Assembly (NCBI GenBank): GCA_026398415.1
Contig: JAPLSY010000032.1
Location: 15,197-79,196, forward strand
Reading direction: 5' to 3'
Length of the DNA stretch: 64,000 nucleotides
From: Kiritimatiellota bacterium
GTDB lineage: Bacteria; Verrucomicrobiota; Kiritimatiellia; JAAZAB01
A model generated the notes under the pieces. The model saw nothing but the letters and a program-made list of their open reading frames with translations. It ran no database searches and was not told the DNA's origin. Made by a program: the position numbers and the translations under genes. The first letter of the stretch is position 1. Every line of letters starts with the position of its first letter. This document shows, piece by piece, positions 34,710-37,367 of the stretch.

Positions 34710-35729
34710 GTGAAAACCATTGCCATTACCCTCGGCGATCCCGGCGGAATTGGGCCGGAAGTGGCCTTGAAGGCGCTGTACCAAAATCGCTGGCCGGCTA
34801 CCTTGCGTTTTGTGCTGATCGGCAGCCGAACGATTCTGCGCCGCCAGGCGGCGCAGCTCCGCCTGCCGTTGCCGCCGGTCTGGCAGTTGTCGGATGGTAA
34901 AAATCATACCGCGCGTATTGTCAACTGGGAACCCGAGCAGGATCTCGAGCAGAAGCCGATGCCCTTGAATTGGCAGCCCGGCGTCATCGGCAAAACACAA
35001 GGTCAGGCAGCGGTGCGGTGGATCAAGGAAGCGGTTAGCGGCTGTATGGCAGGGCGCTTTGATGCCCTGGTTACCGGTCCCATTTGTAAACAGAGCCTGT
35101 ACCTGGCGGGCCTGCCGTTTCCCGGCCACACGGAATTTCTGGCGGCCCTTACCGGAACGCGCTCCTTTGCCATGATGCTCCTGGGCGGACCTTTGCGTGT
35201 AGTGCTGGTTACGCGGCATCTGCCGCTGGCCAAGGTGGCGGAAAGCATTTCGCGCTCGGCCATTCAGGAGGCGGTGCAGTTGGCGGCACAGGCATTACCC
35301 TGGCTCGGCGTAAAGCAAAAAAAGGTCGGTGTCTGCGCGCTCAATCCGCATGCCGGGGATAATGGCGTCCTCGGGCGCGAAGAAATCACGACCATCCGGC
35401 CGGTGTTGTGCGCTTTGCGCCGCAAGGGGTTGAACATTGAAGGTCCTGTGCCGGGCGATGTCATTTTTCACCAGGCCCTGCAGGGCCGGTATGGCGCGGT
35501 CGTGGCCATGTACCACGACCAGGGCCTCGGACCCTTGAAGATGATTGCCTTTGAAGAGGGGGTCAACCTGACGCTTGGCCTGCCGATTGTGCGCACGTCA
35601 CCCGATCATGGCACCGCCTTTGACATTGCCGGGAAAGGTGTGGCGCATGCCGGCAGCATGGTTGCCGCCATTCGCCTGGCCGTCCGGCTGGCTCGCCGAA
35701 AAAACCCATGGGCTCACACTGACCTCTGA
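34710..35729 (+). CDS. pdxA: 4-hydroxythreonine-4-phosphate dehydrogenase
   Basis: GDPGGIGPEV, FPGHTE, LNPHAG, MYHDQG, RTSPDHGTAFDIAG. Confidence 0.95.
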   Translation: MKTIAITLGDPGGIGPEVALKALYQNRWPATLRFVLIGSRTILRRQAAQLRLPLPPVWQLSDGKNHTARIVNWEPEQDLEQKPMPLNWQPGVIGKTQGQAAVRWIKEAVSGCMAGRFDALVTGPICKQSLYLAGLPFPGHTEFLAALTGTRSFAMMLLGGPLRVVLVTRHLPLAKVAESISRSAIQEAVQLAAQALPWLGVKQKKVGVCALNPHAGDNGVLGREEITTIRPVLCALRRKGLNIEGPVPGDVIFHQALQGRYGAVVAMYHDQGLGPLKMIAFEEGVNLTLGLPIVRTSPDHGTAFDIAGKGVAHAGSMVAAIRLAVRLARRKNPWAHTDL

Positions 35730-35754
35730 TTTCCGACATCTGTTCTCTAAAAGA

Positions 35755-35995
35755 TGGGCGAGGTGGGACTCGAACCCACAAGCCCCTGGTCGCCTGTGGC
35801 GCCGCCCCTCCTTAGGCGGGTGAACTCCGGCGGGTAAACTTGCGGCATCCCGCTCCGACAAAAAAATGCTCCCGAAAGGACTCGAACCTTCACCTCGTGA
35901 GAGACATGGTCCTAAGCCATGCGCGTCTGCCAATTCCGCCACGGGAGCGAAAACTTTTACCGGCGGGACGTGTCTGCCAATTTCACCACTCGCCT
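35755..35995 (-). ncRNA. Split Leu-type tRNA-like shell enclosing tRNA-Leu(UAG)
   Basis: 5' half AGGCGAG-TG-GTGAAATTGGCAGACAC-G-TCCCGC (35995-35963); 3' half GCGGGA-TGCCGCAAG...GGCTT-GTGGG-TTCGAGT-CCCAC-CTCGCCC-A; acceptor, D, anticodon and T stems pair. Confidence 0.7.
35867..35948 (-). tRNA. trnL: tRNA-Leu (anticodon TAG)
   Basis: GCTCCCG/CGGGAGC acceptor, GGCAGA D-loop, CATGG-CTTAGGA-CCATG, variable arm CTC-TCAC-GAG, GAAGG-TTCGAGT-CCTTT, discriminator A, no encoded CCA. Confidence 0.95.
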
Positions 35996-36069
35996 GGTAG
36001 GTAATGGTTGGAAAATATCAGATTATTCGGCGCTGGGCGATAAGAAAAGATTTTGAAGGACTATTCAAA

Positions 36070-36098
36070 TTGACTTGATATTGACGGTTCAGTACATT
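36070..36098 (+). promoter_or_regulatory. Sigma70-type promoter
   Basis: TTGACT-17bp-TACATT upstream of the 36163 gene. Confidence 0.55.
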
Positions 36099-36162
36099 TT
36101 TCAACAGTTAAACGAAAGACTTTTGCAATCAACTCGTAATTAAAAGAAAAAGGTGGTCCTGA

Positions 36163-37158
36163 ATGAAAAAAGTTAAGATCGGTTTTATCGGATGCGGCAA
36201 GATCGCGACTTGCTCACATGCGCCAGAATTCCTGAAAATCCCGGGGAAAACTGAAATTTCCGCCCTTTATGACGTGAAGGCTGAAAGCGCGCAGAACCTT
36301 AAAGCGAAAAATAAAGTGGAAGCTGAAACGTATGCCTCCGTAAAAGAACTGCTTGCCTCCGGCATCGCCGGCGTGGTGATAAGCACTCCGAACAGTTTAC
36401 ATTATGAACTGACTATGCAGGCATTGAATTCTGGAGTGAATGTTCTTGTGGAAAAGCCTATGGCGGCAACTTTAAAAGAGGCTGACGAAATGATTGCGTT
36501 GGCGCGCAAGAAAAAATTGGTGCTTCAGGTAAACCAATCAGTGAGGTTCGTTCCCGCTTATGTGAAAATCAAACAACTTATAGAACAGGGCAAAATAGGA
36601 GATCCTGTTCACATACGTTGTCTCCGCGCATCCGGGAGCACTCCTGACCAAGGATGGTCGCCTGGCGCAAAATGGTTTATTCAGAAGAAATTCGCGGGCG
36701 GGCTTATTATGGACATTGCCGTACATATGGCGGATATGCTTGGCTGGTATTTCGGCAAAGCCCGGAATGTTTACTCGATAAATCAGACAAAGATAAAGGG
36801 AAATGATGTCCCCGACAACGTGACGGCCCTGTTTGATTTTGAAAATGGCGCTACCGGAGTTCTTGAATTAAGCTGGACAATTCCAGTTGGCGGAGGGTTG
36901 CTGGAGATTTACGGAAGCAAAGGGACCATACGTCATGGTTTCAATCAAGGCAATATAGAAATGTGCCTGGCGGGTGGTAAATATAAAACCATCAAACCAT
37001 GTAAATATCAAACTTCTCAGGAATGGTTTGCTGACTCTATCAGAGGATTGCCAAGATGCCCGGCCCTCGGCGGTGTCGGCAGACATGCGCTTGCCTACAC
37101 ATTGGCCATAGCGGAATCCGGCGAAAAAAATAAAGCCGTAAAACCTTCCATTAACTAA
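36163..37158 (+). CDS. Gfo/Idh/MocA family oxidoreductase
   Basis: GFIGCGKI, VLVEKP, GGLIMDIAVHMAD. Confidence 0.92.
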   Translation: MKKVKIGFIGCGKIATCSHAPEFLKIPGKTEISALYDVKAESAQNLKAKNKVEAETYASVKELLASGIAGVVISTPNSLHYELTMQALNSGVNVLVEKPMAATLKEADEMIALARKKKLVLQVNQSVRFVPAYVKIKQLIEQGKIGDPVHIRCLRASGSTPDQGWSPGAKWFIQKKFAGGLIMDIAVHMADMLGWYFGKARNVYSINQTKIKGNDVPDNVTALFDFENGATGVLELSWTIPVGGGLLEIYGSKGTIRHGFNQGNIEMCLAGGKYKTIKPCKYQTSQEWFADSIRGLPRCPALGGVGRHALAYTLAIAESGEKNKAVKPSIN

Positions 37159-37178
37159 TTCACTGCAAGGCGGTAATA

Positions 37179-37367
37179 ATTAAAGTCGGGTTAAGCACAT
37201 ACAGTTTGGTAGGCACGATCAAGTCGGGGGAGCTTGATGTTTTGCCGGTAATTCAATGGATTGCCGATAACCACGGAAAACATGCGGAAATAGTTCCATC
37301 CGGTTTTACGCTCACGGACAATAACGAACTTGTTTCCGCAATAGTAAAGAAAGCAAAAGGACAATGA
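37179..37367 (+). pseudogene. N-terminal remnant of a sugar-phosphate isomerase/epimerase (xylose isomerase-like TIM barrel)
   Basis: Reads (ATT)KVGLSTYSLVGTIKSGELDVLPVIQWIADNHGKHAEIVPSGFTLTDNNELVSAIVKKAKGQ*; no ATG start and ends after 62 codons. Confidence 0.6.

Follow-up and report, generated by a model that had tools for sequence, protein, structure and literature searches.

A tRNA-Leu(UAG) gene nested in the remains of the tRNA-Leu(UAG) gene that it probably replaced

In a 64,000-nt stretch of the genome of a Kiritimatiellota bacterium (contig JAPLSY010000032.1; hereafter the window, from whose first nucleotide positions are counted), an intact tRNA-Leu(UAG) gene, which we call B, has on either side one half of another tRNA-Leu(UAG) gene, which we call A (35995-35755, minus strand). 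The outer halves, referred to as the shell, are not a new two-piece RNA; they are likely to be a tRNA pseudogene that surrounds the isoacceptor gene by which it was replaced, B having taken over from A in place. In functional terms, the event is the displacement of an isoacceptor gene in situ. In what follows, G000 denotes the genome of the window, other G numbers denote further genomes, L numbers loci or metagenome contigs, C numbers contigs of the window's own genome, and X numbers sequencing runs.

Read along the minus strand, the locus opens with the 5′ half of the shell (35969..35995; AGGCGAG TG GTGAAATTGGCAGACAC G), which holds the acceptor 5′ strand, the D arm and G26. It is followed by a 20-nt left flank, L (TCCCGCCGGTAAAAGTTTTC, 35949..35968), which replaces the 5′ strand of the anticodon stem of A, and by the 82-nt B gene itself (35867..35948), which was called by ARAGORN and scored 55.9 bits against Rfam RF00005 (cutoff 29). 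A 19-nt right flank, R (TTTTTTTGTCGGAGCGGGA, 35848..35866), pairs with L, the last 6 nt of R with the first 6 nt of L, and a T run lies directly 3′ of B, which in G000 carries A73 while CCA is not encoded. The 3′ half of the shell then starts in the variable arm (TGCCGCAA, 35840..35847; identical to intact A), is interrupted within the variable loop by a 55-nt insert that resembles repetitive extragenic palindromic (REP) repeats and was recognized from repeat matches in the own genome (35785..35839), and ends with GGCTT, the T arm GTGGG TTCGAGT CCCAC, CTCGCCC and A73 (35755..35784), identical to the intact A of G006 and G003. A re-reading of the sequence located on the minus strand every element that a first-pass annotation of this DNA had listed, and a pair count bore out the pairings it had proposed between the outer halves: six of seven in the acceptor (A1·C72 being mismatched in G000), 6/6 in the TCCCGC/GCGGGA stem, 9/9 in the extension helix (three of them G·U) and 5/5 in the T stem. 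The same annotation had described a tRNA inside the anticodon loop of another; the nesting stands, while its placement in the loop does not, since the whole anticodon arm is gone and a cassette stands in its place. Global folding offers no support either way, as the whole 251-nt stretch, with a minimum free energy of −96.2 kcal/mol (z = −0.28), folds no better than its shuffled versions.

The shell is identified by intact type A genes, which lie behind the same upstream block and at the same locus in the same-genus genomes G003, G004, G006 and G007 (the contig of G007 stops within the variable arm of A), with flanking genes that are common to the intact-A and nested loci of the genus. The intact gene reads GGGCGAG TG GTGAAATTGGCAGACAC G CAAGA CTTAGGA TCTTG TGCCGCAAGGCTT GTGGG TTCGAGT CCCAC CTCGCCC A, the part from the variable arm onward being CTCGCCCA. 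Against it, the G000 shell is identical at 26/27 positions of the 5′ half, the sole difference being G>A at position 1, and at 38/38 positions of the 3′ half, so that the likeness of the halves to A is not due to chance. The outer halves are thus the two halves of a Leu-type tRNA, as had been proposed, and sequence comparison likewise confirmed that they differ from the inner tRNA. What lies between them is a cassette of 121 nt (L 20, B 82 and R 19), which stands exactly in place of the 17-nt anticodon arm of A, tRNA positions 27–43, whereas the D arm, variable arm, T arm and acceptor strands of A persist as the shell. ARAGORN and Rfam called only the inner tRNA at this locus, and ARAGORN run with its intron option returned no outer tRNA whether the repeat was kept or cut out in silico; the shell is accordingly not a callable tRNA even once the repeat is removed. 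It does have what characterizes a pseudogene, namely an intact ortholog at the same locus, disabling lesions (in G000 the replaced anticodon arm, the 55-nt repeat in the variable loop and the A1·C72 mismatch), progressive decay, and a functional substitute.

That substitute has the marks of a working gene. B is identical in nine of the ten nested copies described below, with one substitution in 82 nt in the remaining one (G008). The own genome holds 44 tRNAs by ARAGORN, with the Leu anticodons CAG, AAG, CAA, UAA and UAG, and B is its only credible tRNA-Leu(UAG). A second ARAGORN call with this anticodon (C59:10175-10259) is GC-rich, is devoid of the usual conserved tRNA features, and is probably false. 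Across the family, whose 33 genomes make up the whole order, intact A was found in 15 genomes, B in 14, both in none and neither in four, the last being incomplete assemblies; the 14 comprise 13 plus G017, whose B has a 1-nt deletion. Outside the family B was absent from 368 genomes of other families of the class, as against its presence in 13/33 within it. The A-bearing G015, G020, G023, G044 and G011 share flanking genes with the B-bearing G014, G016, G017, G024, G042 and G043 (tblastx with 900-nt flanks). In the genus of the window the locus context differs (pdxA), and both the A and the B form occur there too. A and B are, in sum, mutually exclusive alleles of one locus.

The arrangement is real DNA. 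Contigs from two Logan-assembled sequencing runs that are not flagged as the source of the assembly match it with no differences, those of X10 over 35627-35892 and 35904-37200 and those of X11 over 35610-35953, and between them they span the repeat insert as well as the junctions on either side of the cassette. Four further members of the genus (G008, G002, G009 and G005) and five metagenome contigs (L052, L061, L075, L082 and L086; 5/35 pattern matches, the other 30/35 being chance) show these junctions too, which with G000 makes a set of ten nested copies. A scan of ~185,000 species genomes for the left junction returned 25 stretches, three of which were nested, all in metagenome-assembled genomes (MAGs) of Verrucomicrobiota or Kiritimatiellaeota type, while the remaining 22 were chance matches in coding DNA. 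With ten nested copies, and decayed remnants in five more genomes, the arrangement is not the one-off that the first-pass annotation had allowed for. Nor is it a misassembly, the other outcome which that annotation had named as fatal. A chimeric join of two tRNA-Leu genes within a metagenome bin is conceivable in that tRNA genes share k-mers and the Logan contigs break inside B; with both junctions bridged by contigs of two other runs without a difference, and with the junctions recurring in four genomes and five metagenome contigs that carry lineage-specific substitutions, its probability is next to nil and it is refuted for practical purposes. Two joints among the X10 contigs (35784->35969 with 25 other letters, and 35781->35910) were considered as an alternative form of the locus and were rejected, as they read as ordinary tRNA-Leu genes of other organisms, matched at 90% likeness.

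To be read as a pseudogene the shell should be free to change, and the comparison of the ten nested copies indicates that it is. Expressed as minimum substitutions over alignment columns, the 5′ half of the shell shows 9/28 (0.32) and flank L 4/20 (0.20), next to 6/15 (0.40) in the leader and 19/41 (0.46) in the promoter block, and compared with 0.012 (1/82) in B. The same 27 nt of the 5′ half are identical in 7/10 functional A genes from three families. The 5′ half of the shell thus changes about as fast as the neighbouring non-coding DNA, and relative to that DNA no purifying selection on the shell was apparent (0.32 vs 0.40–0.46). U8, an invariant tertiary position of tRNA, has changed in three lineages (to A in L052, to C in L061, L075 and L082, and to C in G005). 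There are mismatches in the acceptor and T stems of L052 and L082, and the L/R helix is damaged by a C·A mismatch or a deletion in L061/L082 and in G005. The 5′ half is kept in 10/10 nested copies. The 3′ side is visible in eight of the ten, where the 3′ half has been lost in four (G002, G009, G005 and L061) and is interrupted by repeats in the variable and/or T loop in the other four (G000, G008, L052 and L082). The shell is therefore not kept by selection. Among these copies, G009 is the only one to encode CCA after the inner tRNA, and it is without the whole 3′ shell half and R; a TTTTCAG trailer variant is common to G009, G002, L061, L075 and L082.

These figures also bear on two readings in which the shell would still have a function. 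One, raised by the first-pass annotation, is that the paired outer halves yield a two-piece, anticodon-less tRNA-like RNA that acts as a decoy, a non-ribosomal Leu donor or a processing scaffold. The G000 shell could indeed still fold, having an acceptor paired at 6/7, an intact T arm, A73 and a Leu-type D arm; its repeat would sit in a loop pointing away from the tRNA body, and its architecture matches that of engineered tRNA scaffolds, where the anticodon arm has given way to a cargo RNA. What speaks against it is the nature of the changes. The shell is a disabled ortholog that is unconstrained compared with B, the covariation for which that annotation had proposed a test amounts to zero compensatory changes among relatives as opposed to several that break pairs, U8 has been lost three times, none of the eight visible 3′ halves is uninterrupted (four being deleted outright), and the older copies described below retain only decayed 5′ remnants. 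We consider such an RNA exceedingly improbable. Slightly more room is left for a shell that was kept, at least at first, for a need of B in cis, either as part of the promoter and leader or as a tRNA-like fold that aids the processing or stability of the precursor. Such a need would account for the presence of the 5′ half in every nested copy while the 3′ half is lost in 4/8, for 5′ remnants that are still recognizable in five older copies, and for the 13/48 changed columns in the 5′ half plus L compared with 25/56 in promoter plus leader. That difference in rate is small, however, the remnant is separated from B by ~145 nt of other DNA in G001 and by 78 nt in G016, and U8 and D-arm positions mutate freely; moreover, DNA between a promoter and its gene is hard to delete harmlessly, which explains retention without function. 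This second reading is improbable as well.

The nested form also occurs in more decayed states. Remnants of the 5′ half of the shell were recognized upstream of B, by local alignment scored against 300 shuffles, in five genomes, namely G001 of the same genus and four that represent three further genera. The strongest is that of G042 (z = 12.4; GGGTGAGGGGTGAAATGGGCCGACCCATCCCGCCGGTT), followed by G043 (z = 7.6), G001 (z = 6.1), G024 (z = 5.0) and G016 (z = 4.3). In G001, the basal species of the genus, the remnant is at the pdxA locus, and the 145 nt from its end to B include other repeats; in G016 this distance is 78 nt. The core of flank L, CCCGCCGGTT, also lies upstream of B in G042, G043 and G024, and L has no other copy in the own genome. 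No significant 5′ remnant was detected in G014, G041, G021 and G017 (z = 2.6, 2.4, −0.5 and −1.6, respectively). No copy of flank R was seen outside the crown group of the genus (G000, G008 and G009, of which G009 lacks it), nor was a remnant of R or of the 3′ half in any B genome there. Given decayed 5′ remnants in other genera and no 3′ remnants, the nested form has long been present in the family, and it ends as B alone.

The order of these states was placed on a tree of rpoB. Within the genus, the old nest of G001 branches first, followed by the A-bearing G003 and G007, and then by the A-bearing G006 and G004 beside the crown group with its fresh nests, while the clade of other genera with old nests contains the A-bearing G015. 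At least five switches between A and B are needed on this tree (24 scored genomes), and an approximately unbiased (AU) test rejected a tree in which the B-bearing members of the genus form one group (p = 0.0003), a group that was named after the tree had been seen. The trees are without G002, G005, G041, G012 and G046, which have no usable rpoB, and G021 was left out of the family tree owing to a wrong open reading frame with a branch length of 10 in the first tree; rpoB is partial in G010, G015, G014, G013, G044 and G007.

Several observations weigh against a shell that simply decays where it was left. Shell and L of the crown group are nearly pristine, while the remnants in other genera and in the basal G001 are 20–35% diverged, and species with intact A branch between the fresh and the old nests. 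The junction and flank of the fresh crown shell recur in copies that are far older and lie in different genomic contexts, and a single ancient event followed by simple vertical decay does not account for this. The cassette, in turn, replaces exactly one structural domain (27–43), and its ends pair over 6 bp and 9 bp, whereas random illegitimate insertion rarely gives boundaries so exact and so paired. As regards constraint, G000 and G008 differ at 3/47 sites in shell plus L as opposed to 15/54 in promoter plus leader, a contrast that hints at constraint or recent exchange in a pair that was picked after seeing the table. Two L changes of G000 and L086 turn two T·T mismatches into pairs, which is a weak point, as by our own estimate it would arise by chance with a probability of ~0.44. 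RNA sequencing data do not decide the matter: four RNA runs contain 17–22% of the sequence words of a 2.5-kb stretch, in contigs that show neither ends nor levels. The contigs of X13 and X15 contain parts of pdxA and parts of B, those of X13 also 35745-35803, and none extends over 35960-36043; some of the pieces continue into unlike sequence and thus come from other organisms, and we draw no inference from them. The shell may therefore have a role in G000 in particular, on which the RNA contigs are uninformative.

With respect to the ages of the shells, either the nested allele passes between lineages by recombination in the tRNA halves, whose arms would be renewed in the process, or the cassette inserts site-specifically; the exact domain swap and the paired cassette ends point the same way. 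These two options lead to a reading in which L-B-R is a homing-like selfish cassette that converts intact A genes to nested ones, through recombination in the tRNA halves or through an insertion at the anticodon arm that is specific to site or structure. It agrees with the replacement reading that the shell is dead and differs on origin and spread. The A/B switches and the AU test would fit it, as would the same junction and flank in two genomic contexts, one family-wide and the other next to pdxA in this genus, B never being outside an A locus where the context is readable, a fresh crown shell despite older remnants elsewhere, the identity of the 27-nt 5′ arm in 7/10 functional A genes of three families, and the confinement of B to one family. 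On the other hand, no donor with an intact flank R is seen outside the crown group, RecA-type recombination would ordinarily call for arms longer than 27 and 38 nt, there is no enzyme candidate near the locus, the cassette has one copy per genome and no target-site duplication, recombination would run equally well in reverse, from nested to A, and the tree was built from a single protein and from MAGs that are incomplete. More broadly, searches for a donor with intact flanks, for an enzyme, and for a viral or plasmid carrier found none. We regard such a cassette as unlikely, if worth keeping in mind. Its ends, 6 bp plus an imperfect 9 bp with G·U, fit RNA-type pairing as well as they fit terminal inverted repeats, and a miniature inverted-repeat transposable element is disfavoured, given that 17 nt of the target are deleted, none is duplicated, and the own genome has one copy.

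Much the same evidence bears on an integrase-mediated insertion whose flanks would be attachment sites (attL/attR), B being the cargo of an element whose remaining parts were later deleted. Mobile elements often integrate into tRNA genes, the anticodon loop included. Fragments of tRNA genes left by integrated elements are also documented in prokaryotes (PMC9897764; PMC3293823). Here, no part of the tRNA is duplicated and neither half has a second copy in the own genome, in agreement with the first-pass annotation, which had held that the halves are not attL/attR duplicates. The host anticodon stem is missing on both sides, although its strands should persist at the two attachment sites; no integrase or other mobile gene is near; and B had no matches among viral contigs and at most 82% identity to phage records, as expected of a generic tRNA-Leu. 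An integration remnant is therefore very unlikely. The first-pass annotation had offered, as an alternative, that the shell is a tRNA-derived mobile element which transports a tRNA. This turns the roles round: the shell belongs to the resident gene, and the candidate for movement, should there be one, is the inner tRNA together with its pair of short flanks. As for the ancestry of B itself, among comparisons with the own-genome Leu tRNAs it shows 63/86 identities to the CAG gene, 55/82 to A and 56–57 to the rest, and the flanks of the CAG gene in the own genome are unlike L or R. A tRNA-Leu(UAG) at L023 (G040, of another family of the class) combines a B-type acceptor stem (GCTCCCG/CGGGAGC) with A-type D, anticodon and variable arms; this hybrid-like tRNA may bear on the origin of type B.

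Under the replacement reading, the locus would work as follows, judging by the general course of bacterial tRNA maturation. Transcription would start from the old promoter of A in the block upstream of 35996 and run through the 5′ half of the shell. Ribonuclease P would then cut at the 5′ end of B and remove a leader of ~60 nt to which the 5′ half of the shell and L belong, after which 3′ nucleases would trim B and the CCA-adding enzyme would complete its 3′ end, as CCA is not encoded here. The shell halves would be mere leader and trailer, discarded and with no role of their own. The upstream leader and conserved block (35996..36052, minus strand; ..CGCCGAATAATCTGATATTTTC..) are common to the intact-A and the ten nested loci, and the block presumably served the old A gene as its promoter and would now drive B. 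A scan for sigma-70 consensus promoters and for terminators returned no minus-strand promoter and no terminator at the locus. Beyond the shell, the 3′ trailer resembles that of G003 by match in the locus alignment.

The neighbours of the locus encode PdxA, a GFO/IDH/MocA oxidoreductase and an HI0933-like flavoprotein, and neither the neighbour genes nor their Pfam matches include an integrase, a transposase or another recombinase adjoining it. The convergent pdxA (34710..35729, plus strand; Pfam PF04166, E = 2.9e-102) is syntenic in G008, G009 and G001. In G000 alone, the GFO/IDH/MocA gene (36163-37158, plus strand) separates the HI0933-like gene from the tRNA locus; the HI0933-like gene directly adjoins the tRNA upstream block in G008, G002, G003, G007 and the metagenome contigs.

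The repeats that interrupt the shell belong to the genome at large. The 55-nt insert has own-genome matches of 79–91% identity at more than ten places, including tandem arrays with a 36-nt period. The 36-nt unit consists of GTTTACCCGCC, 4 nt, GGCGGCGCC, 2 nt and AGGCGACCAGG, and the own genome holds 33 copies of its core, some in head-to-tail arrays and some in longer "double" forms (C19:48531-48661, C43:128372-128466, C21:48560-48675 and others). The insert at 35785-35839 thus has both features that define the REP-like class of dispersed repeats, many dispersed copies and a palindromic core. It is absent from the G008 shell. A second short repeat, with the core GCCATAGGCTGATCCGCC, sits in the T loop of the shell in L009 (G008), L052 and L082 and occurs at no fewer than ten places in the own genome. 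L082 accordingly has both loop inserts, G000 only that in the variable loop and G008 only that in the T loop, a pattern that requires either insertions in parallel at identical sites, or their precise excision, or exchange among alleles through recombination. Elsewhere in the own genome and outside the window, C24:502-588 holds a tRNA-Leu with the anticodon AAG (A34), an ortholog of the tRNA-Leu(GAG) of relatives. To our knowledge, A34 is unusual in bacteria outside tRNA-Arg; it would imply inosine at the wobble position. Among 27 scanned ortholog or paralog loci (L173-L200), 13 have AAG, 13 GAG and one CAG, from which it follows that G34 and A34 switch repeatedly in the class.

In full-text searches of the main texts of papers, we came across no description of a natural tRNA gene that holds another within it, in line with the first-pass annotation, which knew of no described bacterial example. 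The nearest relatives are the tRNA gene fragments and disrupted tRNA genes that the integration of mobile elements leaves in prokaryotes (van der Gulik et al. 2023, PMC9897764; Sugahara et al. 2012, PMC3293823). The likeness extends to non-functional tRNA pieces beside a functional tRNA that annotation tools ignore or mislabel, and to population-level heterogeneity at one tRNA locus; those cases, unlike the present one, have duplicated segments and recombinase-bearing elements. Here the insert is only 121 nt, consists of a complete tRNA of the same anticodon with its flanks, and replaces one structural arm exactly. Our locus can also be set beside tRNA genes that bear introns, with which it shares an intervening sequence in the anticodon region. 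Group I introns occur in anticodon loops of bacterial tRNAs, and archaeal introns with bulge-helix-bulge motifs include some that carry another small RNA, so that some archaeal cases likewise nest an RNA gene. In contrast, the present case is bacterial, its host gene decays, and the anticodon stem and loop are deleted, such that splicing cannot restore the tRNA. A group I intron in the anticodon loop was rejected for this reason and for the lack of an intron fold: Rfam gave no group I intron or other intron family at the locus even at E ≤ 10, and no bulge-helix-bulge motif was seen on reading the helix.

The closest analogy in kind is the in situ displacement of a gene by a functionally equivalent one, known as xenologous or paralogous gene displacement. 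Its hallmark, interchangeable genes at one locus that exclude each other, is seen here in the 15 A, 14 B and no genome with both; what differs is that the newcomer sits inside the displaced gene, which stays visible as a shell. The engineered tRNA scaffold is matched in form: a cargo-bearing helix stands where the anticodon arm would be, and the other arms (acceptor, D, variable and T) are retained. The present example is natural and its cargo is a tRNA, and there is no evidence in favour of its use, or retention, as a scaffold. The likeness to REP-like repeats concerns the second insert only, a short GC-rich palindromic unit with many copies and tandem arrays; that such a unit entered the loops of a dead tRNA gene is a side issue here.

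The locus lets the replacement of a tRNA gene in place be seen in unusual detail, the displaced gene having been left around the newcomer like a cast, and a single family offers the stages of this replacement from nearly fresh to almost erased. For annotation it carries a warning, as tRNA halves around a good tRNA gene need not be attachment sites, and for RNA design it provides a natural counterpart of the engineered tRNA scaffold. Finally, the domain-for-domain swap, the paired ends and the repeated switching between A and B raise the idea that tRNA genes may spread by converting isoacceptors. If a homing-like cassette were indeed at work, it would destroy the only competing tRNA-Leu(UAG) and thereby become essential to its new host.

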